From: Candidatus Latescibacterota bacterium | GTDB taxonomy: Bacteria > Latescibacterota > UBA2968 | Direction: 5' to 3' | Assembly (NCBI GenBank): GCA_965198115.1 | Contig: OZ240241.1 | Location: 3,392,001-3,456,000, forward strand | DNA: 64,000 nucleotides | Shown: in pieces, positions 29,426-61,561 of the stretch | Layout of the letters: each line of letters starts with the position of its first letter | Numbering within the stretch: position 1 is the first letter of the stretch | Position numbers and translations under genes: made by a program | Notes under the pieces: model-generated | What the model was told of the DNA's origin: nothing | What the model saw: the letters and a program-made list of their open reading frames with translations, nothing else | The model's database searches: none

Positions 29426-29432
29426 ACGCTCC

Positions 29433-31013: not shown

Positions 31014-31035
31014 CCGTCGAACTCCTCCCGCTCTA

Positions 31036-33111: not shown

Positions 33112-33170
33112 ATCTCTCCAGAAAGCGACGACTGCAGGCCTACGACAACCTCATCGGACGCCACGGGTCG

Positions 33171-33982: not shown

Positions 33983-33983
33983 C

Positions 33984-34490: not shown

Positions 34491-34516
34491 GGGCTTACCT
34501 CGGGTTGGCCCTTCGA

Positions 34517-35689: not shown

Positions 35690-35711
35690 AGTGTCGTCGA
35701 TCGGCCCGAGA

Positions 35712-36941
35712 CTACCGGTCGACCTCTCCAAGAACGATGTCGATACTGCCGATCACCGCAATGATGTCGGCCACGTAATGGCCCCTCGTGAGGTAGTTCA
35801 TCGCGCTGATCGCGGTGAAGCAAGGCGATTTGACCTTCACGCGATAGGGCACGTTAGAGCCGTCGCTGATCACGTAGATGCCCATCTCGCCGCGTGGCGT
35901 TTCCGACCGCGTGTAGGCTTCCACATCCTTGGGCGGCCGGACGTTGCGCGGTACCGCTTTATGGACGTCGCCATCTGGCAGCTGATTCAAGGCCTGGCGG
36001 ATGATCTTGACGCTCTCGCCCATCTCTCGGATGCGGACCATGTATCGGTCCCAGCAATCGCCGACCTGGCCCATCTCGCCAGTGCCAACCGGAATGTCGA
36101 ACTCGAAACGATCGTAGATCGAATACGGGTCGTCACGACGCAGGTCCCACTTGACTCCCGACCCACGCAGGTTGGGGCCAGTCAAGTTGTAGGAGTAGGC
36201 CACGTCGACGGGGAGGACGCCGATGTTGGCCGTCCGCTCGATGAAGATCTTGTTGTGCGAGAGAAGGTTGTTGTAATCGACAATCTTGCCTTCGAACTTG
36301 TCGAGGAAGGCCGTGCACTTCTCGATAAAGCCAGGCGGCAGGTCGTGGGAAACGCCGCCCACCCACACGTAGTTGTAGAGCATTCGGGCGCCGCACGTCA
36401 TCTCGAACAGATCGAAGATGTCCTCGCGCTCACGGAACGCGAACAGGAAGGGCGTGAAGGCGCCGATGTCCATTCCGTAGGTACCGAACGACACCAGGTG
36501 ACTCGCCAGCCGGTTGAGCTCGCACACGATGACGCGAATGTATTCGACACGTTCGGGGATTTCGAGCTCGAGCAGACGCTCAACCGCAAGACAGTAGGCC
36601 ATGTTGTTGTTCATGCCGGCCAGATAGTCCATGCGGTCTGTAAACGGAATAACGTGCGGGTAAGGCATGCTTTCAGCGTGCTTCTCGAAGCAGCGATGGA
36701 GATAGCCGATGTGCGGCCGGACGTGCTCGATGATCTCGCCATCGGTCTTGAGCTCGAGCCGGAGCACGCCGTGGGTGCTCGGGTGCTGGGGACCCATATT
36801 GAGGGTCATCAACTCGCTCTCGAGGTTGTCGTCCCCCTCCAGAACCTCGACGTCCGGCAGCCCCGCATGCTCGACGGTCACGTCGGCATCGGGAATCGCG
36901 CCTTCGGGTCGGTCGACGTCTCGAGTCTCGGTATCGGCCAT
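35712..36941 (-). CDS. nuoD: NADH-quinone oxidoreductase subunit D
   Basis: [37 protein letters not shown]; no NiFe CxxC motifs. Confidence 0.95.
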
Positions 36942-36943
36942 GC

Positions 36944-37420
36944 TCAGACCTCGACCCTGATACCCCGGTAATATTCCTGCACCTGGTAGTCTTTCCTCAG
37001 CGGATACCCATCCCAGTCGTCGGGACACAGAATACGTCGGAGATCGCTGTGTCCGTCGAACACGATCCCCAGCATGTCGTAGGCCTCGCGCTCGTGCCAG
37101 TTTGCCACTTTCCAGACGTTCTCGACCGTCGGTACGTGAGGATTGTCGCGGGGCAACTCGACCTTGAGCGTGATTTTGTGTCGGTGGGAGGAAGAACTCA
37201 GGTGGTAGACAGCGCTTATGTGATCTTCGAAGTCCACACCGCTTAGACACATCAGCGATTCGAACTGCAGCGCGTCGTCATCGTGCAGGTGCGCACAAAC
37301 ATCGGCAACCGACTCTGGCTTGACGCGAATCCACGGGTCGAGGTTTTCCGTCAGGTCAATGACGCCATCGCCGAATTTTTCTTTCAGAGTGTCGTAGATC
37401 TCTTGAGCGGTCATGCTCAT
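36944..37420 (-). CDS. nuoC: NADH-quinone oxidoreductase subunit C
   Basis: [27 protein letters not shown]. Confidence 0.93.
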
Positions 37421-37899
37421 CCGACTTTGGCGATCGTCTGGTGGCGGATCTTTTCCTGCAGATTCATCACACCCTCGAGCAGGGATTCGGGGCGAGGAGG
37501 GCAGCCGGGCACGTAGACGTCGACCGGGATGACCCGGTCCACACCCTTGAGGACGTGGTAGCCGTGCTGCCAGTAGGGTCCGCCCGACGTCGCGCAACAC
37601 CCCATGGCAATCACATATCGTGGCTCGGCCATCTGATCGTAGAGCTTCTTCACGCGGGACGACATTTTGAGGGTGACCGTACCAGCCACGATCATGAGAT
37701 CGGATTGACGGGGTGAAGCCCGGGGAATCATTCCGAACCGATCCCAGTCGTAGCGAGAGGCTCCGGTAGCCATCATTTCGATCGCGCAGCACGCCAACCC
37801 GAACGTCATCGGCCAAAGGGCCGAAAGCCTCGCCCAGTTGATGAAGTAATCGAGCGAGGTCACGATCACGTTGTCGTTGAACTGTCCTTCGATTCTCAT
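37417..37899 (-). CDS. nuoB: NADH-quinone oxidoreductase subunit B
   Basis: [33 protein letters not shown]. Confidence 0.94.
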
Positions 37900-37910
37900 A
37901 GGTAGGTGCC

Positions 37911-38327
37911 TCAGGCCGCCTCTTCGACCAGTGAGCGGGTCATCGTCTCGCGGAACCGGTCGACCTTTGGACGCGCCCAATCGAGCGTCCCTTTCTTCCA
38001 GGCGAACGCCAGCCCGAGGAGAAGAATGACGATGAAGACAAACGCCGCGCCGAACCCGTACCATCCGAATTCCTGGGCGACGACCGCCCAAGGGTAAAGG
38101 AGGACGACTTCGACGTCAAAGATGATGAAATCGAGCGCCACCACGTAGAACCGAATGTTGAACTGGATCCAGGACCCGCCCACCGGTTCTTCGCCACACT
38201 CGTAGGTACTCAGTTTTTCTGGATCGGGATTGTCGGGCCGGAACAGACTGCCCAGAAACAGGTTGAAGACGACAAAGAACGCACCCACGGACAGAAAAAG
38301 GAGTACGTTTGCGTAGTCTATGAGCAT
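37911..38327 (-). CDS. nuoA: NADH-quinone oxidoreductase subunit A
   Basis: [28 protein letters not shown]. Confidence 0.93.
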
Positions 38328-38424: not shown

Positions 38425-38552
38425 GTGAAAACCCCTCTCCGTAGAATTGACATAAGTCCAATGTTTTAAGTAAGTAAGACTCGTTTCTGGCATCTCTTTC
38501 ACCGCCCTGCGGCACGGATTTCGCAATCCATACATATTTGTCAAAATTAATC

Positions 38553-38581
38553 TTGACGTTTTTGTCATCAAAGGATATGTT
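38553..38581 (+). promoter_or_regulatory. suf operon promoter with overlapping TGAC-N6-GTCA dyad
   Basis: TTGACG-17-TATGTT; TGACGTTTTTGTCA at 38554-38567. Confidence 0.55.
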
Positions 38582-38637: not shown

Positions 38638-40104
<1,467 letters not shown>

Positions 40105-40130
40105 CACACAACATCGGAGATCAGAACAAC

Positions 40131-40904
40131 GTGGCACTCCTCGAAATCAAGAATCTGCACGCAGGCGTCGAAGATACGGAAATCCTCAAGGGCGTCGACC
40201 TTTCGGTCAACGTCGGAGAGATCCACACCATCATGGGACCCAACGGGTCGGGCAAGAGCACGCTCGCCCAGGTTCTGGCCGGCAACGAAGCCTACGACGT
40301 CACAGATGGATCCGTCATCTACGACGGTAAGGACCTTCTCGACCTCGAGGCCGACGAGCGCGCCAAAGAAGGCGTCTTCATGGCTTTTCAGTATCCCGTC
40401 GAAATCCCCGGTGTCAACAGCGCCTACTTCATGCGCACCGCCCTCAACGAGATCCGCAGACATCGTGGAGAAGAGGAGCTCGATGCCGTCGAGTTTCTCA
40501 CCCTCGCTCGGGAACGTATGGACCTCGTCGAAATGCCCGAGGACTTTCTCAAACGTCAGGTCAACGAGGGGTTCAGTGGCGGGGAGAAGAAGCGCCACGA
40601 GATCTTTCAAATGGCCATGCTCGAGCCAAGGCTGGCCATACTCGATGAAACCGATTCCGGGCTCGACATCGACGCTTTGCGCATCGTCGCCGATGGGGTG
40701 AACCAGCTGCACAGGCCCGACAAGGCCGTCGTCGTCGTGACCCACTATCAACGCCTGCTGGAACACATCATACCCGATTACGTACACGTAATCCTGAACG
40801 GTCGAATCGTCGTATCGGGCGACAAATCCCTCGCCCTACGACTCGAAGAAGAAGGCTACGACAAGATTCGAGCCGAACACGAGGAGCAGGCCGTCCCGGC
40901 CTGA
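40131..40904 (+). CDS. sufC: Fe-S assembly ABC ATPase SufC
   Basis: GPNGSGKST, AFQYPVEIPGV, GFSGGEKKR, LDETDSGLDIDAL, THYQRLL. Confidence 0.96.
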   Translation: MALLEIKNLHAGVEDTEILKGVDLSVNVGEIHTIMGPNGSGKSTLAQVLAGNEAYDVTDGSVIYDGKDLLDLEADERAKEGVFMAFQYPVEIPGVNSAYFMRTALNEIRRHRGEEELDAVEFLTLARERMDLVEMPEDFLKRQVNEGFSGGEKKRHEIFQMAMLEPRLAILDETDSGLDIDALRIVADGVNQLHRPDKAVVVVTHYQRLLEHIIPDYVHVILNGRIVVSGDKSLALRLEEEGYDKIRAEHEEQAVPA

Positions 40905-40910
40905 GGACAG

Positions 40911-42239
40911 ATGGCGGGATCGAACACGGACATCGTCAACCACTACGTAGGCGCCTTCGAGGCGTTCGAGAACGAGCTGAACGGCCAAACGCAATCGCCC
41001 CTACACGGCATACGCAAGAGCGCGATCAGCCGTTTCGCGGAACTCGGCTTTCCCACCTCGCGCGACGAAGCGTGGAAGGCCACGGACCTCAGCCCGATCA
41101 CGGCCACGCCCTTCTCACCGGCCAACAGCACGAGTGTCAACGCCGTGACCGAAGAGGACGTCGCCCCCTACCGGTTCGGTCTCGAGGGCCCGAACCTTGT
41201 CTTCGTGAACGGCCACTTTGCGCCGGCGCTTTCGCGCCCGACCGACCGCGGCGGTGTCTCCGTCGTCTCGCTCCCCGAGGTCGGTGAGGACGCAGCGGTC
41301 GATGCCCACTTGACAAGGATCGCGACCTTCGACGCTCACGCATTGACGGCCCTCAACACCGCCTTTCTGGTCGACGCCGCCTGCATCCACATCGGAAAAG
41401 ACACCACATTCGACGATCCGATTCATGTCCTTCATTTCACGACCCCGGTGGGTGAGCCTCATCTTGCCACCCCACGTGCCCTCATCGTCGTGGAGAAGGG
41501 TAGCCGCGCGACCGTCGTCCAGACGTTCGTCGGTGAAGATGACGGTGCGTATCTCAACAATGCGGTCACCGAAATTCACATCGGCGAAAACGCAGAGCTC
41601 CACTACGTCAACACGACGCTCGAAGGCCCCGAAGCACGGCACACGAGCAACCTCAAGGTTTCTCAATGCCGGTCGAGCCGCTTCACGTCCTACACCATCA
41701 GCGTCGATGGCGCTTTCACGCGGAACGACATCAACTCAGTGCTCGCCGGCGAGGGGTGCGAGTCGACCGTCAACGGCTTCTACGTTCTCGATGGCAACCA
41801 ACATTGTGATAACTACACGCTCCTCGAGCATCAGCAACCACACTGTCCGAGCCACGAGCTGTTCAAGGGCATCCTCGAAGACAGGGCACGCGCCGTCTTC
41901 CGAGGCAAGATTCACGTTCACCAGGCTGCCCAGAAAACCGACGCTTACCAGCAGAATCAGAACATTCTACTTTCCGACGACGCCCGCGTGAACACGAAAC
42001 CCCAGCTCGAGATCTATGCCGACGACGTCAAGTGTTCCCACGGTGCGACAGTGGGCCAGCTCGACGAGGACGCACTTTTTTACATTCAGGCACGAGGTAT
42101 CTCCCGCAAGGCCGCCTACCGAATCCTGCTGCGAGCGTTTGCCGAGGACATCCTTGGCCGAATCGAGGTCGAGTCTCTTCGCGATGAACTGACGAACCGC
42201 GTACTCGCCAAGATCGACCGAAACGGAGCAAGCGCATGA
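40911..42239 (+). CDS. sufD: Fe-S cluster assembly protein SufD
   Basis: AQKTDAYQ, PQLEIYADDVKCSHGATVG. Confidence 0.94.
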   Translation: MAGSNTDIVNHYVGAFEAFENELNGQTQSPLHGIRKSAISRFAELGFPTSRDEAWKATDLSPITATPFSPANSTSVNAVTEEDVAPYRFGLEGPNLVFVNGHFAPALSRPTDRGGVSVVSLPEVGEDAAVDAHLTRIATFDAHALTALNTAFLVDAACIHIGKDTTFDDPIHVLHFTTPVGEPHLATPRALIVVEKGSRATVVQTFVGEDDGAYLNNAVTEIHIGENAELHYVNTTLEGPEARHTSNLKVSQCRSSRFTSYTISVDGAFTRNDINSVLAGEGCESTVNGFYVLDGNQHCDNYTLLEHQQPHCPSHELFKGILEDRARAVFRGKIHVHQAAQKTDAYQQNQNILLSDDARVNTKPQLEIYADDVKCSHGATVGQLDEDALFYIQARGISRKAAYRILLRAFAEDILGRIEVESLRDELTNRVLAKIDRNGASA

Positions 42240-43519
42240 GCATCACCACGGCAACCGACGTCGGCCGCGACGCCGTTGAGTCTATAGCAGAACGGCCCGC
42301 CCCCTTCGACGTGTCGAAGGTTCGGGCAGACTTTCCCATCCTGAATCAGCAGCCGGTGGACAACCCCCTCGTTTACCTGGACAACGCGGCGACTACGCAA
42401 AAGCCTCAAAGGGTGATCGACTACCTCAGCCGCTACTATGCCTTGCAGAATTCGAACATCCACCGAGGCGTCTACAAGCTGAGCGAAGCGGCGACCGAGG
42501 CCTACGAAGGTGCGAGACACAAAATTCAGCGTTTCATCAACGCCAACGACCCACGCGAAATCGTCTTCACTCGAGGTACGACCGAAAGTATCAACCTCGT
42601 CGCCGAAACACTCGGTAAGCTGCGTGTCGGTGAGGGCGACGAAGTCATCGTCACCGAACTCGAGCATCACAGCAACATCGTCCCCTGGTATCTCCTTTGC
42701 CGGGAGAAGGGCGCGGTACTTAGACACGCTCCGATTGACGCAAACGGCGACGTCGATGTCGACGCTCTGGAGTCGCTCATCAGCGACCGCACGAAAATCA
42801 TCGCGATCGCTCACGTCTCCAACAGCCTGGGTACAGTCGTTCCTATTCGGCGCGTTGTTGACATCGCCCGCGCACGTGACATTCCCGTCGTCGTCGACGG
42901 GGCACAGGCCCTCCCCCATCTTCCGGTCGACGTGCAGGAACTCGGGTGCGACTTCTTCGCCTTCTCCGGTCACAAGCTGTTCGGACCGACCGGCATCGGC
43001 ACCCTCTACGGGCGCTACGAACTGCTCCACGAGATGCCACCCTACCAGGGTGGTGGCAGCATGATCCAAAAAGTGACATTCGACGAAATCACGTTCGCGG
43101 ACCCGCCCACGCGATTCGAAGCGGGGACCCCCGACATCGCCGGCGCGATCGGGTTCGGTGTCGCCGTCGACTACCTGAACGCGCTCGATCTCGAGGGCGC
43201 CTTCGCGCACGAACACGACTTGCTCGAACACGCTACGGAGTCTCTCAGCCAGATCGACGGGCTACGCATCATCGGCACGCCGAAGCAGAAGGCGGGCGTG
43301 CTTTCATTCGACCTGGGAGAAATCCACCCCCACGACATCGGTACGATTCTCGACCAGGAAGGGATCGCCATACGGACGGGCCATCACTGTGCGCAGCCCG
43401 TGATGGCACACTTTGACATTCCCGCGACGGCGCGTGCGTCATTCGCTTTCTACAACACCCGCGAAGACGTCGACCGTCTCACAGCGGGCGTTCGAAAAGT
43501 CATCGATTTGTTCGGGTAA
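42236..43519 (+). CDS. sufS: Cysteine desulfurase SufS
   Basis: YLDNAATTQKP, EHHSNIVPW, FSGHK, RTGHHCAQP. Confidence 0.95.
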   Translation: MSITTATDVGRDAVESIAERPAPFDVSKVRADFPILNQQPVDNPLVYLDNAATTQKPQRVIDYLSRYYALQNSNIHRGVYKLSEAATEAYEGARHKIQRFINANDPREIVFTRGTTESINLVAETLGKLRVGEGDEVIVTELEHHSNIVPWYLLCREKGAVLRHAPIDANGDVDVDALESLISDRTKIIAIAHVSNSLGTVVPIRRVVDIARARDIPVVVDGAQALPHLPVDVQELGCDFFAFSGHKLFGPTGIGTLYGRYELLHEMPPYQGGGSMIQKVTFDEITFADPPTRFEAGTPDIAGAIGFGVAVDYLNALDLEGAFAHEHDLLEHATESLSQIDGLRIIGTPKQKAGVLSFDLGEIHPHDIGTILDQEGIAIRTGHHCAQPVMAHFDIPATARASFAFYNTREDVDRLTAGVRKVIDLFG

Positions 43520-43539
43520 ACGTAACGGGTGACTCACAG

Positions 43540-43980
43540 ATGCTCGATCCGCGCGAACTTTACCAGCAGCTGATTCTCGACCACAACCGTCACCCGAAGA
43601 ACTTTCGGACCATCGACGAAGCAACGGGAGAGTGCGAGGGCTACAATCCCCTGTGTGGAGACCGATACCACGTCTATGTGAGCCTCAAAGGCGCCAGAAT
43701 CGAAGACATTGCGTTCCAGGGCGCGGGGTGTGCGATCTCCAAAGCTTCTGCTTCACTTATGACGCATCTCATCCGGGGCAAAACCCGAGGCGAAGCCGAA
43801 GAAATGTGCGCGGAGTTCAATCGGATCGTCACGGGCGATGTCGAGCCACCTGACGACCTCAGCGCGTTCGCCGCGTTCGCCGGGGTGCGGGACTACCCAT
43901 CCCGCGTTAAATGCGCGACACTTGCCTGGCATACGATGAAGGCAGCGATCGAGGGACAAGAAGAAGCGACAACGGAGTAA
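43540..43980 (+). CDS. sufU: SufU (IscU/NifU N-terminal-like) sulfur transfer protein
   Basis: LYQQLILDH, NPLCGD, GCAISKASAS, RVKCATLAWH. Confidence 0.92.
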   Translation: MLDPRELYQQLILDHNRHPKNFRTIDEATGECEGYNPLCGDRYHVYVSLKGARIEDIAFQGAGCAISKASASLMTHLIRGKTRGEAEEMCAEFNRIVTGDVEPPDDLSAFAAFAGVRDYPSRVKCATLAWHTMKAAIEGQEEATTE

Positions 43981-44021
43981 ACACTGCGGCTGGGGTCACA
44001 GCCTGAGCAACGGAGGCACCG

Positions 44022-44525
44022 ATGTTCGAACGGTTTTTCGGGAAGAAGAAAGACAAAGAGCAGCCTGACGCGACGTCGATCGAGCCGGCTACACCCGATC
44101 CCGTCGAGCCCGTGAATACGAACGCCCTTCAGACTTTCGCTGCGGAGAAGGAGAACGAGAAAACCGAACGACGAAACGAGATCGAGGAGGAGGCGGAGGC
44201 CTCGGGCGAGACGGTCGACAAGGACGTGCTGAAAGATCGCATCACAGACATGATGCGGACGATCTTCGACCCGGAGATTCCGGTGAACATTTACGACATC
44301 GGCCTCATTTACGAGATCAACCCACAGGACTCGGGGATCGTGCACGTCAAAATGACACTCACCACGCCCAACTGTCCAGCGGCGGGTATTCTGCCCGGTG
44401 AAGTCGAAAGCAAGACCCGCAGCGTCGAAGGCGTCAAAGATTGCGAACTCGAACTCACTTTCGATCCACCGTGGACCCCGGACATGATGTCCGAAGCGGC
44501 CAGACTCGAACTCGGGATGCTGTGA
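44022..44525 (+). CDS. sufT: DUF59/SufT Fe-S maturation protein
   Basis: DPEIPVNIYDIGLIY, MTLTTPNCP, FDPPWTPDMMSEAARLELG. Confidence 0.88.
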   Translation: MFERFFGKKKDKEQPDATSIEPATPDPVEPVNTNALQTFAAEKENEKTERRNEIEEEAEASGETVDKDVLKDRITDMMRTIFDPEIPVNIYDIGLIYEINPQDSGIVHVKMTLTTPNCPAAGILPGEVESKTRSVEGVKDCELELTFDPPWTPDMMSEAARLELGML

Positions 44526-44530
44526 CGTCG

Positions 44531-44665
44531 ACATTGAACATTGAAGATTGAGTATGGAACATTTCGAATGTTGTGCCGTGCCCGATTCGCTGTTGATGGT
44601 TTCGCGCGAATCTCTTTGGCACGACGGCCACACCTTCATGTTCATCTATCTTAAATCTTAAATGA
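44531..44665. repeat. Nested imperfect inverted repeat with 7-nt periodic outer arms
   Basis: ACATTGA-ACATTGA-AGATTGA-GTATGGA-ACAT on the left versus CATGTTCATCTATCTTAAATCTTAAATG on the right; inner pairs CGTGCC/GGCACG and GATTCGC/GCGAATC. Confidence 0.5.
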
Positions 44666-44669
44666 CGCT

Positions 44670-45176
44670 ATGAAACTATCGACTCAGGAAGAATACGGTC
44701 TTCGATGCCTTCTCCAGATCGCGCGCCAGGAATCGGGCAGCGGCGAAAGCGTCACCATCAACGAAATCGGTCAGGCCGAGGGCCTGTCGATGGCGAACGT
44801 CGGCAAGTTTCTGCGTGCCCTGCGACTAAGCGGGTTCGTCGACAGCGAACGGGGTCACGCCGGCGGTTACCGTCTGGCCAGACCTGCCAGCGAGATCTCC
44901 GTAAAGGATGTTCTCGACGCCCTGGGCGGCAAGCTGTTCGATGCCGAATTCTGCGAAGAGCACAGCGGCGCGGTCGAATCTTGCACCCATTCGGTCGAGT
45001 GTTCAGTCCGCTCGCTCTGGAACTCGATGCAGTTTCTCGTCGACCGACTCTTGGATCAAGTTTCGCTTCAGGACATGATGGGAACAGAGCACGAACTCGC
45101 CGCTTGCTTGAGCGAACGCTCCGAAATGCTTCTTCAGGTCGCAGATGTGGGCTTGTCGCAGCCGGTGGACAGGTAG
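44670..45176 (+). CDS. Rrf2 family regulator (IscR-like, three Cys ligands)
   Basis: [29 protein letters not shown]-x9-C-x5-C. Confidence 0.9.
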
Positions 45177-45180
45177 AACT

Positions 45181-45693
45181 GTGGGAATCGAAACCGGATT
45201 GGGCGACAACATCCTGACGACTTCTCTGGACAGGATGATCAACTGGGCCCGCAAGAGTTCGCTCTGGCCCATGCCCTTCGGAACAGCCTGCTGCGCCATC
45301 GAAATGATGGCCACGCTGTCCGGTCGTTTCGACTTGGCGAGATTCGGCGCGGAGGCCGTACGTTTCTCGCCTCGGCAATCCGATCTGTTGATCGTCTCAG
45401 GACGCATTTCGATCAAGATGATGCCGGTGCTCAAGAAGATCTACGACCAGATGCCAGACCCGAAGTGGGTCATCTCGATGGGCGCGTGTGCGTCATCGGG
45501 TGGTGTGTTCAACACCTACACACTCGTCCAGGGTGTCGACCAGTTCTTGCCCGTCGACGTTTACGTGCCCGGGTGCCCGCCTCGCCCGGAAGATTTAATT
45601 TACGGGTTGATGAAGGTCCAAGAAAAAATCGAACGGGAGCATCCGACTCAGGATGCGGGGTACGCAGCCGACGCGTCGATCGTCAGTCGCTGA
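45181..45693 (+). CDS. nuoB: Second, stand-alone NuoB-family 4Fe-4S protein
   Basis: [40 protein letters not shown]. Confidence 0.9.
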
Positions 45694-45736
45694 TCGCCGG
45701 TCAGAGACTGACCGCGCTCACCCATCGGAGGGTTGA

Positions 45737-46321
45737 ATGATCACTGTAACAGATCCAGCGCGAGAAGAGATTGTGAATTTGATGCAAAAGCAGGAACAGG
45801 AGGTTAGGGGCGTCCGGATCAAGGCAGAAGCCGTATCACCGCTTCAGGCGAACTACCGACTTCGGTTCGTCACTGACGAGCAGGTCGAAGACGGCGACAA
45901 CGTCATCGAATTCGAAGGGTTTAACATCTACGTCGACCCCGACTCGATGAGCTACGTCGAAGAGGTCTCTGTCGATTTCGTCGAGAGTCTCGCCGGACGT
46001 GGCTTCAAGATTGACAATCCCAACCGCGTGCCACCACACCTCAAGGGAACTGTCGCGGAAAAGGTACAGACGATCATCGACGAAAAGATCAATCCACAGA
46101 TCGCTTCCCACGGTGGCACGCTCACCCTCCTAGACGTCAAGGATAACCGTGCGTTCGTCAAGTTCGGAGGAGGCTGCCAGGGCTGCGGTATGGTCGACGT
46201 CACGCTCAAGCAGGGTGTCGAGGTTCTGATTAAAGAGACGTGCCCCGAAATCGAAGAAATCCTCGACGTCACCGATCACGCCGAGGGCACCAACCCTTAC
46301 TACCAGGGCGCCGCGCACTGA
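45737..46321 (+). CDS. nfuA: NfuA-type Fe-S carrier (Cys-less A-type domain + NifU C-terminal domain)
   Basis: MITVTDPA…GFKIDNPN, INPQIASHGG, GGGCQGC, DVTDHAEGTNPYY. Confidence 0.88.
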   Translation: MITVTDPAREEIVNLMQKQEQEVRGVRIKAEAVSPLQANYRLRFVTDEQVEDGDNVIEFEGFNIYVDPDSMSYVEEVSVDFVESLAGRGFKIDNPNRVPPHLKGTVAEKVQTIIDEKINPQIASHGGTLTLLDVKDNRAFVKFGGGCQGCGMVDVTLKQGVEVLIKETCPEIEEILDVTDHAEGTNPYYQGAAH

Positions 46322-46346
46322 ACACACCAAGACGCGCAAGACAGGA

Positions 46347-46387
46347 GGCCTGATTCGCACGAAAACGGAATCAGGCCCCTTTCTTTC
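46347..46387 (+). terminator. Intrinsic terminator after nfuA
   Basis: GGCCTGATTC…GAATCAGGCC followed by CCTTTCTTTC. Confidence 0.65.
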
Positions 46388-46448
46388 AGGCTCTCACAGT
46401 TACGACCTCGCAATTCACGGAGCCATTCTGAATTTTACATTTTGACTT

Positions 46449-46847
46449 TTAACTTCCCTCCCCCTCTTCATCCTCGGACTCACCGTCTCCACCATCCTTG
46501 GCCTTCTCTCGCTTCTCTCGAAACTCTTTCACTTTTTTTATGATGTCAGGCGCCAACCCAATCAGCTTTTCGATCGACATCCCCGAGTCCTCGAGCGGCA
46601 TGATCTGAGCCTTGCCCTTGTGGATCACGATGAAGGCGACCGGTTCGACAGAACCACCGCCCCCTGTTCCGGCTCCCCCATCCTCTTTTTTCCCCTTGCC
46701 ACCTCCTGCGCCAAAACCGAACGAAATCTTTGACACGGGGACAATCACAGTCTCTTCGAACGCGATCGGCTTCCCGACGATCGTTTCGGTCTTGGCAATC
46801 TCCTTGAACTCCTGGAGAACAGTTTTGATGATGTCTTCGAGTGACAT
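46449..46847 (-). CDS. YtfJ/GerW family protein
   Basis: TETIVGKPI, IVPVSKISFGFGAGGG, GGGGSVEPVAFIVI. Confidence 0.85.
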   Translation of the reverse strand: MSLEDIIKTVLQEFKEIAKTETIVGKPIAFEETVIVPVSKISFGFGAGGGKGKKEDGGAGTGGGGSVEPVAFIVIHKGKAQIMPLEDSGMSIEKLIGLAPDIIKKVKEFREKREKAKDGGDGESEDEEGEGS

Positions 46848-46858
46848 ACGTCTCTCCT

Positions 46859-47545
46859 TCAGGCAGCCTGGGCGCGGGACCGACGCCACTCACTCGTGCG
46901 ACGCGTCAGAACCATCGCCAGATAACCCCAACCGAGCACCACGGCTGCGCGAACCACTGCTACGATGAGTCGAGCCAGGTGAAACGTCAAATCGACACGC
47001 AGGGACCCACGAAACCCTGAGAGCTGGAAGTCCGGCACGACATCGAGCTGCAGCCGATCGGAGGTGACGTCATCGATGGCGCGCAGGTAGCCGAAAAGGC
47101 TGCCCGTCGTTTCTGCCCTGTTCCCTCCGTATCGTCCACGGACCTGAAGCCTGCGAAAGCGGATCACTCCCCGAAGCCGCCGCAGAAACCGAAGCGCCGG
47201 ATCCCGAAATCGCCGATCGTATTCGAGCACCTCGTCGATACGTTGGCGCCACCCCTTCTCGGTCTCGGGCTCCTTTTCCGGTTTAGCCGGTTTGGCCGGT
47301 CTGGGTTTCTTGACCTTTGGTTTCTCACCGGGCCGAATCGTCCAGACGGGAAACCCCACAACAACAGGACGAATCTCCAACACCTCGTCGGCCCACGTGA
47401 CCCGCGCCGACAAAGCCCCGAGGGCCAGGACCACGCGTCCGGCGGCCACGACGCCTTCCTCCGACAAGACCCCCGAAACTCGAATTCGAACCGGAATCAG
47501 GACAATCGAAGCGGCCAGCGCCAGAATCAGGTATACGATGAGCAT
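46859..47545 (-). CDS. DUF2953/YtfI-like membrane protein
   Basis: N-terminal TM, AETTGSLFG, VVPDF; sits in the usual position upstream of ytfJ. Confidence 0.65.
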   Translation of the reverse strand: MLIVYLILALAASIVLIPVRIRVSGVLSEEGVVAAGRVVLALGALSARVTWADEVLEIRPVVVGFPVWTIRPGEKPKVKKPRPAKPAKPEKEPETEKGWRQRIDEVLEYDRRFRDPALRFLRRLRGVIRFRRLQVRGRYGGNRAETTGSLFGYLRAIDDVTSDRLQLDVVPDFQLSGFRGSLRVDLTFHLARLIVAVVRAAVVLGWGYLAMVLTRRTSEWRRSRAQAA

Positions 47546-47697
47546 ACGCGAATGCGCAACAATACGGAAGACCGGGTCCGAGTGTCAAGCCCTGATCGCT
47601 GCAAGTTCCTGTAAAGCCTTGACATGTGGATGCGATTATCGTATTTGACGCATGAATGTGGCTGGGTGATTCGCCCAATACAGAACCGAGGAAGCCG

Positions 47698-49554
47698 GTG
47701 AGCGTGATCGAACAATGGCAGGACGAGGGACGTCTCTCCAAATTGGCCGCAGAAGGCCTCCACCAGTGGCTGACCACTCCCGCCTATGCCGATCATCGTG
47801 AAGAGATCGCGGCCCTCATCCAGGCGGGTGACACGGACGAACTGGAAGACGCGTTTCGAACACACATCGCCTTCGGTACGGGTGGCATTCGTGGAAAGAT
47901 GGGACCCGGACCCAATCGGATCAATCTTCGAACGATCGGCGAAGCGGCACAAGGCCTTGCCCAGTATGTGCTCAAGGAGACGGGCAGAGAAGGTGCGCGG
48001 CGGGGTGTCGCCATCGCCTACGACACACGCAACAACTCGGCCCGGTTCGCGCACGAGGCGGCCGCGATCATCGCGGCAAATGACATCACGGCTCACCTGT
48101 TCGACGCGCCCCGTTCGACACCCGAACTGTCGTTCGCCGTTCGGAAGATCGACGCCGTCGCCGGAATCGTCATCAGCGCAAGCCACAACCCCCCGCGGGA
48201 CAACGGGTTCAAGGCATATTGGAGCGACGGCGGCCAGGTCGTCCCGCCCCACGACGCTGCCATCATCGCCGAAGCCGGGGCTGTGGCGAACATCGAGCGC
48301 ATCGACTTCGACACCGCCGCCGAACAGGGGCTGATCAGGAGCCTCGGCTCCGACACGGATACAGCCTACATCGAGGAAACCCGCCTGACGGTGACCGGAA
48401 ACCGTGGTGGCCGCATCGTCTTCACGCCGCTGCACGGGGTTGGCGCCACCTCCATCGTCCCCGCGCTTCGAACGCTGGGCTTCTCCGATCTCCACGTCGT
48501 GGACGTTCAGAATGATGGCAACGGTGACTTCCCCACGGTAACAGGGGGCATCGCAAACCCCGAATCACCCGAGGCTATGGCGCTCGCCATTCAGAAGGCC
48601 GCCGAGATCGACGCGGACCTCGTCATCGCCAGCGACCCCGATGCCGACCGACTCGGGTGCGCTCTACCCCTGGATGATCGGGGATGGGATGCGGCACCGT
48701 CCGACCTCGCGTTGAACGGCAACCAGATCGGCGCGCTCCTCTGCCACTATCTGCTCTCGAGCCTGGAAGCGCGAGGCGACCTTCCTCCCGAACCGGTCGT
48801 GTGCCAAACTATCGTGACGACCGACCTGACGGGTCGCATCGCGCGTGCCTTCGGGGCTCGCGTCGTCGACAACTTGCTCGTGGGATTCAAATACATCGCC
48901 GCAGTGATCGCCGACCTCGAAGCCAACGAGACCTTTCTGTTCGGAACGGAGGAAAGTCACGGCTACCTCGCGACCGACGTCGTTCGGGACAAGGACGCCG
49001 CGTCGGCCGCGATGCTCCTGGCGCAGTGCGCGGCCGACGCATTGTCGCGAGGCGAAACCGTCAGGGACGTACTCGACGACATTTATCGCGAACACGGCTA
49101 TTTCAGAGAGCTTCAGAAGTCCGTCACTCGCGAGGGGGTCTCCGGCAGCGGGGACATCCAGACGATCATGTCCGCGCTCCGCCAGAATCCTCCCGACGCC
49201 CTCGGACCCTACCCCGTCGTGCGTGTCGTCGACCGACAGGCAGGGAAGTTCCGCGACCTCGAGACGGGGGCGTCGGGCATCGTCGAAGGAGACACGGGCA
49301 ACGTCCTCGCCTACACGTTGAGTGAAGCCGGCCACACGCGTGTCACCGCTCGCCCCTCTGGGACCGAGCCCAAAATCAAATACTACGTGTCTGCATCTTC
49401 GCTCGACATCGACTGCGAGCAGGAGAACCTCGAGGCCACCAAAATCGCCGTCGACGGAGCCGCCGAGGAAATCCTCGATGCGATTGCCGAACTCGCAGAG
49501 AGCGCACTACGCGAATCGGGATCGCCCACGGCATCGACAGGACGGGCGTCGTGA
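47698..49554 (+). CDS. Phosphoglucomutase/phosphomannomutase
   Basis: FGTGGIRG, SASHNP, DPDADR, EESHG, RPSGTEPKIKYY. Confidence 0.92.
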   Translation: MSVIEQWQDEGRLSKLAAEGLHQWLTTPAYADHREEIAALIQAGDTDELEDAFRTHIAFGTGGIRGKMGPGPNRINLRTIGEAAQGLAQYVLKETGREGARRGVAIAYDTRNNSARFAHEAAAIIAANDITAHLFDAPRSTPELSFAVRKIDAVAGIVISASHNPPRDNGFKAYWSDGGQVVPPHDAAIIAEAGAVANIERIDFDTAAEQGLIRSLGSDTDTAYIEETRLTVTGNRGGRIVFTPLHGVGATSIVPALRTLGFSDLHVVDVQNDGNGDFPTVTGGIANPESPEAMALAIQKAAEIDADLVIASDPDADRLGCALPLDDRGWDAAPSDLALNGNQIGALLCHYLLSSLEARGDLPPEPVVCQTIVTTDLTGRIARAFGARVVDNLLVGFKYIAAVIADLEANETFLFGTEESHGYLATDVVRDKDAASAAMLLAQCAADALSRGETVRDVLDDIYREHGYFRELQKSVTREGVSGSGDIQTIMSALRQNPPDALGPYPVVRVVDRQAGKFRDLETGASGIVEGDTGNVLAYTLSEAGHTRVTARPSGTEPKIKYYVSASSLDIDCEQENLEATKIAVDGAAEEILDAIAELAESALRESGSPTASTGRAS

Positions 49555-51245
49555 AGGAAACATCCGGCATCTACAACAACCTGGCTGACTACGGAGACCC
49601 GGAGTTCAGCCGCTTCATCCGTCGAGCTTTCATGTCGGCGACCGGCTACGACGGCGAGGACCTCGACCGTCCGATCGTCGGCATCGCCGACACGTCGAGC
49701 GACTACAACACGTGCCACGCCCGAATGCCCGAGCTCGTCGACGGGGTCAAACGTGGTGTGCTCGAAGCGGGCGGGCTGCCGCTCGTCTTTCCCACCCTGT
49801 CTTTGAACGAGATCCTCTTCCACCCGACGACGATGTATTACCGCAACCTGCTCGCGATGGAAACCGAGGAGATGATCCGGGCACAACCCATGGATGCCGT
49901 CGTTTTGCTCGGTGGGTGTGACAAGACCGTGCCGGCTCAGCTGATGGCGGCCGTTTCCGCCAACGTGCCTGCCGTCATTGTCGTCACCGGGGCAATGAGA
50001 ACCGGGGAATGGCGCGGCAACCGGGTTGGCGCCTGTACGGACTGCCGGAGTTATTACGGACGTCATCGCGCGGGCGAGATCGACGCGACCGAGCTCGAGG
50101 AAGTTCAGAGCGTTCTCTGCTCGACCCCGGGAACGTGCATGGTCATGGGCTCGGCGTCGACGATCGCCTGCGTGGCCGAAGCGCTCGGCATGATGCTGCC
50201 AGGCGGGGCTTCGCCTCCGTCGGGTACGGGTGACCGGATGCGGAACGCCGTTGCCTCGGGCCGCCGCGCCGTGGCGCTCGCACGGGAGCCGATACGTCCT
50301 CGCGACCTTCTGACGCGCGCCAACTTCGACAACGCGTTGAAGGTCCTGATCGCCCTGGGCGGCTCGACCAACACGGTCGTTCACCTGATCGCCATCGCCA
50401 AGCGCGCCGGGATCGATCTGTCGCTCGACGACCTGCAAAGCGTATCGAACCGAATCCCGTTGTTGGTAGACTGCAAACCATCGGGCACCGTTTACATGGA
50501 GGACTTCCATCAAGCCGGTGGCCTCCCCACCCTCCTTAAGGCCCTCGAGTCCGAGCTCGACAGTAGCCCCATCAACATCGAGGGACGCAATCTGGGCGAG
50601 CGTCTGGCGAACGTGAACGAGCCCGGTCACTGGCAGACCGTCATCCGCACGCTCGACAACCCGCTGGGTCCGCCCGGGTCGCTCACGACGCTGGTCGGAT
50701 CGCTGGCGCCTGACGGTGCGATCATCAAAACGTCCGCGGCCACCCCCGACCTATTCGAGCACACCGGTCCGGCGGTCGTCTTCGATGGGCCGGCCGACGC
50801 CGCCGCCCGTATCGACGACCCGACGCTCGGAATCACACCCGATCACGTCCTTGTCCTGAGGGACGCTGGCCCCATCGCAGCAGGCATGCCCGAGGCGGGG
50901 TCACTGCCGATCCCGAAGCATCTGGCCGAACAAGGCATCAAGGATGTCGTGCGAATTTCGGATGCTCGAATGAGTGGTACCGCGTTTGGGACCGTCGTCC
51001 TCCATTGCGCTCCCGAGTCCGCCGCAGGGGGCCCTCTGGCACTCGTCAGGGACGGGGATCGGATTCAGCTGTCGGTAGAAAGTCGCCGGGTCGATCTTCT
51101 GGTAGACGCCGATGAACTCGAGCGAAGACGATCCGGGTTCGTCCCTCCCCCGTTACCCGCTCGAGGGTGGGCCCGTCTATTCTGCGAGCACGTGCTCCAG
51201 GCCAACGACGGGGTCGACTTCGATTTTCTGACGGGAACCGATTGA
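49551..51245 (+). CDS. IlvD/Edd family dehydratase (sugar-acid dehydratase-like)
   Basis: YNTCH, GGCDKT, GTCMVMG, GGSTN, ISDARMSGT, PESAAGGPL. Confidence 0.9.
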   Translation: MKETSGIYNNLADYGDPEFSRFIRRAFMSATGYDGEDLDRPIVGIADTSSDYNTCHARMPELVDGVKRGVLEAGGLPLVFPTLSLNEILFHPTTMYYRNLLAMETEEMIRAQPMDAVVLLGGCDKTVPAQLMAAVSANVPAVIVVTGAMRTGEWRGNRVGACTDCRSYYGRHRAGEIDATELEEVQSVLCSTPGTCMVMGSASTIACVAEALGMMLPGGASPPSGTGDRMRNAVASGRRAVALAREPIRPRDLLTRANFDNALKVLIALGGSTNTVVHLIAIAKRAGIDLSLDDLQSVSNRIPLLVDCKPSGTVYMEDFHQAGGLPTLLKALESELDSSPINIEGRNLGERLANVNEPGHWQTVIRTLDNPLGPPGSLTTLVGSLAPDGAIIKTSAATPDLFEHTGPAVVFDGPADAAARIDDPTLGITPDHVLVLRDAGPIAAGMPEAGSLPIPKHLAEQGIKDVVRISDARMSGTAFGTVVLHCAPESAAGGPLALVRDGDRIQLSVESRRVDLLVDADELERRRSGFVPPPLPARGWARLFCEHVLQANDGVDFDFLTGTD

Positions 51246-51259
51246 TCCCCGAGGCCCCC

Positions 51260-51730
51260 ATGACCCTGACCACGTCCGATATTATGAGCAGCCCCGTCAT
51301 CACTGTAAAAGCCGTCACTCCCGTACGCGAACTCATGGACATTCTTCAGACCCACGAGATCACGGGTGTGCCGGTCGTCGACGAGAACGGAGACCTCGCG
51401 GGCGTCATTTCGATCACCGACATCCTCTCGGTCAACGAAGGGGAAGAAGAAATCGGCGATCGGATTCCAGATTTCTACACGTCCCCGGCGATGGATGGAC
51501 TCGCGCAGATCACATCCCTGATCGAACCCGATGAGACCATCCTCGACGCACCGGTTGGATCGTTGATGTGCAAAAACATCGTGACCGCAGACAAGGACGC
51601 CTCGATTGGCGAAATCTCGGGCGCCCTCGTCGCTCGACGCATTCACCGACTCCTGATCGTGGAAGAGACTCGCGTAACGGGTATTGTTAGTGTAGGAGAC
51701 GTGCTTAGAGCGATCCACGAAGCCTCCTGA
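51260..51730 (+). CDS. CBS-pair protein
   Basis: ITGVPVVDENGDLAGVISITDIL, IHRLLIV…GIVSVGDVL. Confidence 0.85.
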   Translation: MTLTTSDIMSSPVITVKAVTPVRELMDILQTHEITGVPVVDENGDLAGVISITDILSVNEGEEEIGDRIPDFYTSPAMDGLAQITSLIEPDETILDAPVGSLMCKNIVTADKDASIGEISGALVARRIHRLLIVEETRVTGIVSVGDVLRAIHEAS

Positions 51731-51738
51731 GGTGGCCT

Positions 51739-53983
51739 ATGGCCAGGCGACTATCCAAAGCCGACTCGCTGAATCTGGGTGAAATTGACCGGTTCCTCGA
51801 ATCCGAGAACGCCCTACCGGACGACGAGCAGGAACCGGCTCAGCCCACCGCGCCAAGCGCGGCCCCCGATCCCGAACCCCCACTCGAATCGGAAGCGGAT
51901 GCTCCCGCGACCGAGGAACCAGTGCCCGAACCCAAGGCCCTCAGTGTGGCGGTTTCCGACGACGGTCTCGAAGCGGCTATCCATTCCATCAATCCCGATA
52001 CGACACTCGAATTCGCGCTGGATTCCCTGAAAAACAACGGTGTGACATTTGGGATAGACGAAGATGCGATTCGTCACGCGATCGATCAGGCGAAGGATTC
52101 GAGCCAACCCGTGCGTCGCCAAAGGCACCGAACCAAAGCTCCCTGCGGCACCCAGAATCGAACACCGCCCTCCCGAAGGACTCGATAGCCTTCCGAGTCT
52201 GGCACCGCTGGTCAAAGCGCTCGACCTGGAAGCCCAGGAAGAACTGCTCGAGGGCGTCAAAGACATCACCGTCGTGCCCGTCACGCGAGACGATACGTTG
52301 GCCGAGCTCATCGAGGAGGCCGGCGAGGCCGGCCAAAGTGTGACCGGGGAGCCCATCGATCCACCGCCGCACGAAACGGAAATGGAGTCCGAGGGGCTGC
52401 AACCCGGGGAGGGGGTCGAGCGTGACGCAGACGGACGCTACAAGGCGACACGCTGGGGATACGCCGGCGTTCTGGATGGCAAGGTGACCACCCTCGCCCC
52501 GATCTGGATCTCCCCCGACGCGATGTCTGCATTCCTGATTCACCGACCCCATGAAGGGAGCAACGGGGCAAGCCCCACGGTCGATGACCTCAATGCTGCA
52601 CTGGCCGCACGCAATGTCTCCGTCGGGATCGATGCCGAATGGCTTCAGAAAGTGGCCAGCCGGCTCGCTGAAGGCACGGTGGCCCGCACGCTCGTGCCGC
52701 TTGCTCACGGAGTCGACCCCGAGCCGACGGAGGATGGCCGAATCGATTTCTCGTTCCCGCCGGACACGCAGGCTGGCACGGTCAACACCGACGGATCGAT
52801 CGACCTGAAAGAGCGTAACCTCTTTCCCGGCGTCGAGAAGGACGAACTCCTCGCGGAAACCTTCCCCCCGGTGGAGGGGACGGCTGGAAAAACAGTGACG
52901 GGAGACGACGTCGAAGTGGAACCACCGTTGGCTGTCGAACTCGTGGCCGGAGAAAACACCCGCCTCGTCGAGGAAGGCGCCAAACAAAAAGTCCTCTCCG
53001 AAATCACTGGTGGAGCCTCCGTCAAGACGGTCGAAGTCAGTGGAGGCGACGGAAAGAAGCAGCAATCCACCGTATCCGTGAAGGAGATCGCCCAGGTGTC
53101 GGGCGACGTCAACTACGAAACGGGGAACCTCGATCACAAAGGGAACATCGATGTCAAAGGGAACGTCCTGGGTGGATTCAGCGTTCGGGCGTCGGGGGAC
53201 ATTGTGATTGCTGGAGCGATCGAAGACGGAGCGACCGTCGACTGCGACGGCAGCCTGACCGTGAAGATGGGCGTCTTCGGCGAGAAGACGACTGTAAGGG
53301 CGGGAGAAGAGATCACGGTCAAGTTCATCCAGGATGCGACGGTCCACGCAGGAAGCCACATCAACGTGGGCAGTTACATCCACACCGCATCCGTCCACTC
53401 CGGTGGGCGCGTGATCGTCGAAGGGGGCGGCGGATCGGGAGGTGGCATCATCGGGGGTGAAACCTGGGCGGTGGAGGGCATCACGACCAAGAACTGCGGG
53501 TCGGATCGGAGCGCGACCACCTTCGTGGCGGTCGGCGTGGATCGTGACCTCTACATCGAGTACGACAAAGCAAGGCGAACGGCCGCCAAGGGGAAGACGC
53601 TCCTTCGCAACCTGCTGCGCGCCATCGGCATCGAATCGCTGGAGCCGGAGGTCATCAAAGCCCTCGTCGCACGACAGCGACGCAAGGCGAACGAGATTCT
53701 ACACTACGTGAAGAAGGCCAACGAACTGGCGAGAATCGCGAAAGAAAACGAGGAGGCAGAGAAGACGATTAGGGAGCAGATCGAGCAAGCGAGCAAGGAC
53801 GCTACGCTCGACGTCGGCGACGTCGCCCACGAACGGGTGCGACTCCGGATCGGCAATCGCGAGGTCCGTTTGGACGAAGATCGCAAGGGAGTTCGCTACT
53901 TCTCGGATCAGAAGGAAGACGGCCCCGAAATTACTTACGCGGCACTGTCACCGGAAGGGTCGGAAGAGAAGGAGAGCGGCTGA
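51739..53983 (+). CDS. FapA (DUF342) family protein, frameshift near 52114
   Basis: DGSIDLKE, GDVNYETGNLDHKGNIDVKGNV, GGIIGG beta-helix region; N-part …DSSQPV joins VAKGTEP in another frame. Confidence 0.8.
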
Positions 53984-54079
53984 AAAACTGTGGACGGTGG
54001 ACGGGACAGACGGCTTCGCCTATGCGGTCCTTGATGTCACGGTTGTGTCAATGTTCTATCTTGAATCGTCAATTCTCGA

Positions 54080-55144
54080 TTAAAAGATATCCACCCACGC
54101 GTAAAACAGCGGTGCACACTCTCCCATCCGGTCCCACCACGTCGTCTCCCGATCGTCTGGTAACGGGCGTCCCATCAGAACCCGCCAAAACGCATCCGCT
54201 TCGGCACGATCCGTCGGCGGCTCCGTTCCCACGTCGATCCCGGCTGTGGCGAGTTTTTCCCGCAGACGTTCCCAGTCCGCAATCTTGACCATCATCTCGT
54301 CGTGTCTGGACCACGTCGCCTTCCCGCCGGTCTCGCGCTCAAGGTAACCGACGATCGGATGCCCCGACCTCAGACTACCCTCGATTGGTTTTCCATCCGA
54401 GTCTGAAACGACCGCAGAGGCCAGGGCTTCGTAGGCATTCTCCTCTTCGTCGAATGCGCACGCCTCTTGGACCCAAAGCTCGTCCTCTCCGACATCCCAG
54501 TTCGCATAGGCCACGAGTCGTCCGTCGCGTCGAACACCCGCCCGTGGGAAGACGCCTCTCAGACGAGCGGGACCGTCGTCCCAGTAGTCGGCGTTTCGTT
54601 CGCACGCGCCCGTCGATTGCGTGCGCTCGACCTCGTAGAGGGCACGCACGTCAGTCAGATCTCCGGCCACCGAAAGCCTCTCCGGCTGGGGGGCAATGAT
54701 TGACCCTTCGACCCCGGCCAGCTCGAACGTCGGCAGCGCCAGAGGGGTCCATCCACGCGCATCGTAGTACGGGGTCCCGATAATGCTGAAGAGCAACCCG
54801 AGTTCGTAGCCTTCAGCGAAATACTGCTCGGCGTCCGCCAACAATCCGCTGCCGATGCCCTGGCCACGATGCTCCGGAAGCGTCAGAAGGCTCCCGACGC
54901 CGCCCGCCAGAAGCCCCACGCCCCGCACGTTCAGAATACGGTCCCAGACCCGAAGATGCCCGACGATCTGGTCGCCGTGAACAGCCACGCGAGTTTGCTC
55001 GAGTCGATAGCCCGGATCCTCTGTCACATAGCATCGATAACGCGCCGGGGCATCGGGCTCCGTCGGTCTGAACACCCTGTGTTGCAACCCGACGCAGGTC
55101 TCGAGCTCCTCCTCACGTGCCGCCCTGTATTGGATATCCGGCAT
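54080..55144 (-). CDS. GNAT acetyltransferase (Eis-like)
   Basis: GGVGSLLTLPEHRGQGIGSGLL, YYDARGW. Confidence 0.8.
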   Translation of the reverse strand: MPDIQYRAAREEELETCVGLQHRVFRPTEPDAPARYRCYVTEDPGYRLEQTRVAVHGDQIVGHLRVWDRILNVRGVGLLAGGVGSLLTLPEHRGQGIGSGLLADAEQYFAEGYELGLLFSIIGTPYYDARGWTPLALPTFELAGVEGSIIAPQPERLSVAGDLTDVRALYEVERTQSTGACERNADYWDDGPARLRGVFPRAGVRRDGRLVAYANWDVGEDELWVQEACAFDEEENAYEALASAVVSDSDGKPIEGSLRSGHPIVGYLERETGGKATWSRHDEMMVKIADWERLREKLATAGIDVGTEPPTDRAEADAFWRVLMGRPLPDDRETTWWDRMGECAPLFYAWVDIF

Positions 55145-55153
55145 CGTGCCCTC

Positions 55154-55930: not shown

Positions 55931-56005
55931 CTCACCTCTCCTGTCTCGCTTTTTCCACAGGACACGCGGATTCCGCGTTGCACACGCGGGCTCAAGAAAA
56001 AGGGC

Positions 56006-57379: not shown

Positions 57380-57406
57380 AAAAGGGCTCGGGAAGACCCA
57401 AGCCCT
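57380..57406 (-). terminator. aspC terminator, which is also the IS256 target site
   Basis: AAAAGGGCTCGGG-AAGA-CCCAAGCCCT hairpin with U-tract on the minus strand. Confidence 0.6.
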
Positions 57407-57431
57407 GTGTGCGTCAGTCTGGACGGCGACC

Positions 57432-58628: not shown

Positions 58629-58718
58629 CCTCTGCATCCTCTGGCAAAGGGTTCCCTGCGTGCGCCGAAAGATACTGAGCCCGCAACAACCGGACAAGCT
58701 CCGGGACCCAGAACCTTC

Positions 58719-61176: not shown

Positions 61177-61203
61177 TCCTCCTGTGACCTACAAACGTGA
61201 AAG

Positions 61204-61546: not shown

Positions 61547-61561
61547 GCCAGCCCCTTTCGG

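Follow-up and report, generated by a model that had tools for sequence, protein, structure and literature searches.

A complex I nuoB gene at the tail of a sufBCDSUT operon in a Latescibacterota genome

Results

A nuoB gene lies between rrf2 and nfuA downstream of sufBCDSUT

The window, by which we mean the whole 64,000-nucleotide stretch of Candidatus Latescibacterota DNA that was analysed, contains the gene run sufBCDSUT-rrf2-nuoB2-nfuA on the + strand, with 4 nt separating rrf2 from nuoB2 and 43 nt separating nuoB2 from nfuA (Table 1). This arrangement and both gaps agree with the original prediction, which was made from the sequence alone and proposed a stand-alone NuoB paralogue, NuoB2, wired into an iron-sulfur (Fe-S) biogenesis operon. 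An ATG at 45145 was considered as the start of nuoB2 and ruled out because homologues begin at the GTG. The suf operon shares a divergent promoter region with nuo operon 1, which encodes 11 subunits, both here and at the 8 loci of families f1 and f2 that were examined.

Table 1 Features at the suf-rrf2-nuoB2-nfuA locus and the adjoining nuo operon (positions in the window)
Feature	Position	Strand	Description
nuo operon 1	27902-38327	-	A-B1-C-D-H-I-J-K-L-M-N, without nuoEFG; divergent from suf
nuoB1	37417-37899	-	within nuo operon 1
Imperfect palindrome	38525-38548	-	AAWYTTGAC-N6-GTAYRGWTT, conserved; candidate Rrf2 operator
Promoter before sufB	38553-38581	+	sigma-70-like, TTGACG-N17-TATGTT
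sufB-C-D-S-U-T	38638-44525	+	upstream of rrf2
sufB	38638-40104	+	named from sequence and order, without profile scan
sufC	40131-40904	+	named from sequence and order, without profile scan
sufD	40911-42239	+	named from sequence and order, without profile scan
sufS	42236-43519	+	named from sequence and order, without profile scan
sufU	43540-43980	+	named from sequence and order, without profile scan
sufT	44022-44525	+	named from profile matches
rrf2	44670-45176	+	168 aa; Rrf2-family regulator
nuoB2	45181-45693	+	170 aa, GTG start; complex I NuoB (N2 cluster subunit), operon-2 type
nfuA-type carrier	45737-46321	+	A-type domain PF01521 and Nfu domain PF01106
Hairpin after nfuA	46343-46380	+	terminator-like; followed by CCTTTCTTTC

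The Rrf2 protein has the three cysteines that were originally reported (C95, C105, and C111), and these, along with C13, H98, and H107, are invariant in 32 of 32 relatives. In profile searches only the superfamily model TIGR00738 passes its cut-off, with scores against the IscR, SufR (Xantho), CymR, and NsrR equivalog models all below theirs. The NfuA-type carrier has an invariant C147-x2-C150 in its Nfu domain. It resembles E. coli NfuA in joining a degenerate A-type domain to an Nfu domain with a CxxC motif, the E. coli protein being presented in the available part of PMC8593673 as a carrier needed under oxidative stress. In contrast to E. coli NfuA, the carrier falls short of the equivalog cut-offs set for NfuA by NCBIfam (157 bits against 269) and is encoded beside a putative client gene.

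An extra nuoB copy could arise as an assembly chimera or from contaminant DNA, and the genome has a contamination estimate of 5.1% and a congener, G001, that is without the copy. However, independent unitigs from X1 (possibly the source sample), at 40232-45487 and 45459-47600, cross both junctions with 0 differences. Further, the GC3 of nuoB2 (0.75) matches that of nuoB1 (0.76) and of a third copy, nuoB3 (0.73), nuoB2 groups with the nuoB genes of its own family (support 92/86), and 20 other genomes share the layout, as do 3 of 70 metagenome loci. A chimeric or contaminant origin is refuted at the contig level, and we assign it a negligible probability.

The spacer between sufT and rrf2 (44526-44669) is 144 nt long here and 24 nt long in the congener G001. 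It has no unusual structure (z -1.11; 27 of 200 shuffles). A 34-nt part of it matches C1:6236050 at 88% and may be a small repeat.

NuoB2 matches the NuoB of a second complex I

NuoB2 passes the NuoB models NF005012 (241 bits against an NCBIfam cut-off of 116) and TIGR01957 (235 bits against 143), and PF01058 is the sole domain profile that matches it, with no carrier domain. Its N2 ligands, C37, C38, C103, and C132 (followed by P133), align to those of Nqo6 and are invariant in 23 of 23 sequences, which bears out the claim of a complete NuoB. According to the available part of PMC4758237, a tandem Cys pair is the criterion separating NuoB from hydrogenase small subunits. The best PDB match is Thermus thermophilus Nqo6 (2fug_6, E 2.6e-64), ungapped over residues 9-152, and NuoB/Nqo6/PSST proteins of known structure (2fug_6, M. 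smegmatis 8e9g_B, E. coli 7awt_B) are like NuoB2 in their full-length ungapped match, their tandem Cys, and the two other N2 ligands. Hallmarks of A-type, Nfu, and U-type Fe-S carriers or scaffolds were sought in NuoB2 and none was found, the ligand set being unchanged. Judged by its residues, NuoB2 is not a novel protein but an ordinary NuoB, the N2-cluster subunit of complex I; the unusual part is the genetic wiring.

By tblastn the 8.4-Mb genome holds three nuoB, two nuoA, two nuoD, and two nuoI genes and one nuoE. The third nuoB (C1:4433648-4434142) is inside a second nuo operon, operon 2 (C1:4413889-4434498), with the order nuoA-B3-CD-E-F-G-H-J-K-L-M, an mrp cluster, nuoN, and then atp genes. 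NuoB2 is 58% identical to NuoB1 in the neighbouring operon, from which it differs clearly, as had been noted from the sequence motifs of the two proteins, and 89% identical to NuoB3, encoded 1 Mb away. The original comparison had set NuoB2 against the wrong operon. "Stand-alone" is true of the position of nuoB2 only, since the genome encodes this close relative within a nuo operon. The 16 changes between NuoB2 and NuoB3 are mostly conservative (dN 0.06, dS about 2.1, dN/dS about 0.03), and the two are under equal constraint when compared with G010 (pN 0.033 for B2 and 0.031 for B3). The mrp antiporter cluster is inserted whole between nuoM and nuoN, nuo-mrp-nuoN-atp forming a single-strand run in this genome (G000:C1:4408172-4434498; L001, L002), and antiporter-like extra genes also follow nuoM in many relatives.

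It had been proposed that NuoB2 is a swap-in subunit for the complex without NuoEFG that is encoded next door by operon 1. The divergent promoter region that suf shares with operon 1, here and at the 8 f1/f2 loci, would suit such a role, but the identities place NuoB2 with the other complex I. In addition, operon 1 keeps nuoB1, both in the window and in the f1/f2 loci, and it is operon 2 that loses its nuoB in relatives. From these comparisons operon 1 is not a likely partner of NuoB2, and we consider the swap-in role improbable.

We instead consider it quite likely that NuoB2 is the functional NuoB of the second, NADH-oxidising complex I encoded by operon 2, and that it does not act alone. 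In this process, NuoB2 would receive its [4Fe-4S] N2 cluster via the SUF/NfuA route and would dock on the NuoCD, NuoI, and NuoH subunits of operon 2. The cognate nuo set exists in this genome with its own NuoB3, so NuoB2 is not needed on paper; here it may serve as an additional source of the same subunit under separate regulation.

Operon 2 also lacks nuoI in every copy where the examined stretch reached far enough. In this genome the operon-2 nuoI is at C1:1656205-1656705, within sod-prx-erpA-rny-nuoI-iscU-like-queG-miaB-lipA-Rieske (C1:1652002-1660070), a run of genes for Fe-S metabolism and the oxidative stress response. The rny-nuoI-iscU-like arrangement is kept in 18 of 18 loci, with queG near in 17 of them. 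The IscU-like protein after nuoI has one Cys here (L003:7821-8198) and three in family f3 (L244:6689-7057), and its sequence suggests a degenerate scaffold. A YgfZ-type gene lies 3.5 kb upstream of the nuoI run (L003:4002-12070).

The suf-linked gene is the only operon-2-type nuoB in many relatives

Among 125 genomes of the class with a completeness of 80% or more, 30 encode a NuoB of the NuoB2 type. In the remaining 95 no NuoB of this type was found at E 1e-70, and those that were inspected encode either another complex I or no protein matching NuoB. The rrf2-nuoB-nfuA arrangement is present in 21 of the 30, so the linkage to rrf2, nfuA, and suf is conserved. Both copies are kept in this genome, G035, and G036 (in G036 the operon nuoB is cut by the contig end), and the operon copy alone is found in six genomes (G001, G005, G007, G010, G023, and G043). 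In five of these six rrf2 adjoins nfuA, the suf tail of G005 having not been found.

The suf copy alone is found in 18 genomes (G019-22, G024-30, G034, and G037-42), 15 of which belong to one genus, so these relatives are not independent. All 18 have a completeness of 90% or more and 7 are single-contig, with contamination estimates of 5-12% in many relatives. In each of the 18, nuoA directly precedes nuoCD in operon 2, and there are exactly two PF01058 matches, the operon-1 NuoB and the suf copy. Therefore, the suf copy is the only NuoB for the NuoEFG-containing complex in these genomes, barring the 58%-distant NuoB1, which has its own operon. In contrast to the genes for the NuoB, Nqo6, and PSST proteins of known structure, nuoB2 is in a suf operon and not beside nuoA or nuoC, and is the sole copy for its complex in 18 relatives. 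The original prediction had named, as evidence against itself, a second nuo set simply lacking nuoB combined with a linkage not conserved in relatives; such a nuoB-less set is found in the 18 relatives, not in this genome, and the linkage is conserved.

In family f3 (three genomes) both nuo operons lack nuoB and, where the examined stretch extends far enough, nuoI as well. These genomes have a cluster nuoB2-cysE-nuoB1-nuoI1, directly after sufT in one of the three (G031). The f3 cluster, at L206:7088-9637 in G031 and also in L207 and L208, supplies two nuoB-less nuo operons. In metagenome contigs, 70 rrf2 loci comprised 3 with rrf2-nuoB-nfuA, 9 with rrf2-nfuA, and 58 that were different or too short. 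Of the named records that share the layout, L079 (Ca. Latescibacterota) is the closest.

The operon position of nuoB is probably ancestral, because five genomes of other classes (G129, G144, G146, G147, and G148) have nuoB directly before nuoCD in an operon-2-like cluster. In two others, G130 and G131 (L285-L286, f9), nuoB is directly before nuoG, and in G060-G062 (L297-L299, f4) a lone nuoB has no nuo match in the examined stretch, both being further cases of nuoB detachment within the phylum. Further afield, nuoC/D is missing from the examined stretch in 47 of 80 related nuoB loci of other lineages, many of them Acidobacteria, some of these contigs being short. A general rule that a detached nuoB lands beside Fe-S genes was not found in the 47 loci, where 79 flanking ORFs were scanned (of 132 predicted) and none was a suf, isc, or nfu gene. 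Among the same 79 ORFs, 3 have GcvT/YgfZ-type domains, and an iscU-like match is 3-6 kb off in 3 of the 47 loci. Detached nuoB and nuoI genes in Acidobacteria may have been described by Chadwick et al. in 2018.

The nuoB phylogeny follows species and not locus

In a nuoB tree (477 columns, with synonymous sites largely saturated and L081-L083 left out), sequences track species, not locus. The suf copy of this genome groups with the operon copies of family f1, as noted above, that of G034 with the operon copies of G023 and G043 (support 99/99), and the copies of G035 and G036 with one another (90/95). A clade of suf copies, which the original prediction had offered as a check, is rejected by the AU test (p 0.0019, or 0.0047 when codon positions 1+2 alone are used), as is a clade of operon copies (AU p 0.0011). 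No fixed residue separates 21 suf copies from 8 operon copies, in a count that left out the f3, Poribacteria, and L079 rows. In a species tree of eight operon-2 proteins, from which G033, G036, and G037-G042 were left out because the retrieved sequence did not cover all of operon 2, the suf-bearing genomes are on five separate branches (g1, g7, g8, g10, and g11).

These results also bear on the proposal that NuoB2 serves the SUF pathway as a free Fe-S carrier, scaffold, or sensor, or that it is a dedicated intermediate. The position between genes for an Fe-S regulator and an Fe-S carrier is suggestive, as is the retention of the gene in three genomes that also have the operon copy. However, the suf copies have no diagnostic residue and form no clade, and in 18 genomes the suf copy is the sole NuoB for a complex I. 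The two copies in G035 also differ by a pN of only 0.011 despite a pS of 0.84, a pattern to be expected of copies that share a partner. We rate the carrier or sensor role as very improbable, slightly more so than the swap-in role.

For NuoB2 as a subunit of the operon-2 complex, the lack of a suf clade and of a fixed residue indicates duplication, repeated re-copying, and reciprocal loss. The simplest account of the sequences is that nuoB was duplicated long ago from its ancestral operon position into the suf tail and that the loci were occasionally re-copied onto one another, after which most lineages would have lost one copy and G000, G035, and G036 would have retained both. Re-copying would have occurred more than once, through gene conversion or through nuoB moving repeatedly to one suf site; such repeated moves also fit the sequences, and the data do not separate them from conversion. 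The suf nuoB of G034 and the operon nuoB of G023 have a pS of 0.46, compared with 0.30-0.45 for orthologues of the two genomes and saturation at about 0.7, which dates the split of the pair to about the speciation rather than to the base of the order. Long identical tracts between paralogues within a genome were sought and not found (longest 21-23 nt), and therefore no conversion is very recent. In G034, NuoCD starts MGLEAG at an ATG overlapping the nuoA stop, and the nuoB start in relatives is MGLETG; this start is likely a deletion scar, though the nuoA overlap forces the first three codons. A search for a nuoB remnant in the rrf2-nfuA spacer gave nothing convincing in G001, G002, L306, L313, and L319, and a weak, post-hoc signal in L305 (score reached by 75 of 2000 shuffles; tail, 20 of 2000).

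nuoB2 is predicted to be expressed with the suf operon

The natural reading of the locus is that nuoB2 would be transcribed from the suf promoter together with rrf2 and nfuA, as suggested by the conserved sufB promoter, the short gaps, the hairpin after nfuA, and an RNA-library contig. The boxes of the sufB promoter recur in 9 relatives. The hairpin is strong (z -4.65), with 0 of 200 shuffles folding as well, and was not called in a consensus terminator scan. The RNA-library contig, from another study, is 212 nt long with a depth of 3.7, spans rrf2-nuoB2 (45128-45339) with 0 differences, and may be DNA. The only other RNA-library pieces longer than 18 nt on a 19.9-kb stretch are three, all on an IS element; RNA run X4 shares only 0.06 of the words, and missing cover elsewhere is uninformative. 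Against a single suf transcript, the 144-nt gap between sufT and rrf2 could hold a separate promoter or a break.

Rrf2 probably controls the transcription of nuoB2, given the candidate operator at the sufB promoter. A matrix built from the promoters of eight relatives, without G000 or G001, ranks the site at 38525-38548 first in the 8.4-Mb genome, and in leave-one-out analysis 10 of 11 promoters have an operator-like site, G031 being the exception, although the motif is partly the -35 box itself. Upstream of operon 2 and of rny/nuoI the motif is absent (ranks above 4000), and a search for one operator common to these two loci and suf found none.

Myxococcus xanthus has a similar system in risR-sufBCDSUT, with the same suf gene order, a three-Cys Rrf2 protein, and a palindromic TGAC..GT at the suf promoter. 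In the available part of PMC9973013, the holo form of RisR represses suf via a GAC-N7-GTC palindrome over the promoter. In contrast to M. xanthus, rrf2 here is at the operon tail, followed by nuoB and nfuA, and the spacer is N6, not N7; that part of PMC9973013 has no mention of nfuA or nuo. By its context, three cysteines, and motif, the Rrf2 protein here resembles RisR. If a RisR-like repression by the holo form applies, a shortage of clusters, or damage to them, would raise the NuoB supply, which would fit replacement of N2 alongside NfuA. Coupling of nuoB2 expression to Fe-S status is plausible.

Discussion

Complex I gene sets that are split over several loci are known. The available parts of two surveys indicate that 86% of genomes have their nuo genes together (Spero et al. 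2015, PMC4453560) and that split and single-cluster complex I sets are mixed in most clades (PMC12361115). The set described here is like these in distributing a complete complement of subunits over several loci. It differs in that nuoB and nuoI specifically are detached, among Fe-S biogenesis and client genes, and in that two nuoB loci have alternated across the order, a case not found in those parts of PMC4453560 and PMC12361115. In a search of titles and abstracts, with most subscription journals and supplements outside its scope, a nuoB in a suf/nfuA operon was not described. What is new is a split complex I with the gene for its N2 subunit inside an Fe-S assembly operon.

The suf copy is the only one left in many relatives, so the building of complex I is likely tied to Fe-S cluster genes: in 18 genomes the NADH-oxidising complex I depends on a gene of the Fe-S assembly operon, its own operon being insufficient. 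The arrangement predicts a carrier-client pair, in which NfuA would serve cluster N2 of NuoB, and a control point at a single subunit that would join respiration to Fe-S status. It also provides a natural series of operon remodelling, with the operon-only, both, and suf-only states all present, plus the putative deletion scar. Where annotation relies on gene clusters, such complexes would look incomplete and the nuoB beside suf would be taken for an orphan.

The placement of nuoB may have been selected as an Fe-S gate or repair circuit, in which NuoB and NuoI, the small [4Fe-4S] subunits of the quinone module, would be made together with their cluster-loading machinery and complex I assembly or N2 replacement would follow Fe-S status via Rrf2; this possibility, which we hold as tentative, adds to the assignment of NuoB2 to operon 2 and does not exclude it. 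In its favour, the suf-tail site is occupied in five separate branches, the operon-2 nuoI has independently come to lie among Fe-S genes (18 of 18 loci with iscU-like, 17 of 18 with queG), family f3 took nuoB out for both complexes, together with cysE, and the RisR palindrome of M. xanthus (available part of PMC9973013) resembles the motif here. However, nuoB detaches easily elsewhere without Fe-S neighbours (the 47 of 80 loci), at least 5 relatives with rrf2-nfuA keep nuoB in the operon only, the larger Fe-S subunits NuoE, NuoF, and NuoG remain in the operon, and neither operon 2 nor rny/nuoI is preceded by the candidate operator. If the placement is neutral, the locus is still a tidy case of gene relocation.

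A wider form of this proposal, which we put forward with equal caution, is that the lineage sorted its complex I genes by cofactor supply. NuoB and NuoI would be wired to genes for Fe-S assembly and delivery (suf-rrf2-nfuA, erpA/iscU-like) and for sulfur supply (cysE), an Fe-S-sensing Rrf2 would gate assembly or repair of the complex via one subunit, NfuA would be the dedicated N2 donor, and two nuoB loci that gene conversion keeps interchangeable would offer lineages a route for switching between a constitutive and an Fe-S-gated complex I.

Other genes in the window include a Mutator-family (IS256-type) transposase gene at 56036-57286, which accounts for most of the RNA-library cover of 43500-63400. 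A gene at 58719-61176 resembles TLC-type ATP/ADP transporters with HEAT repeats; its N-terminal part is apparently encoded in another frame that overlaps it upstream (59902-61176), which could reflect a frameshift or a wrongly called start. The window also encodes a SprA-family protein of 2,000 aa (13846-20094) and a FapA-domain protein (52064-53983).
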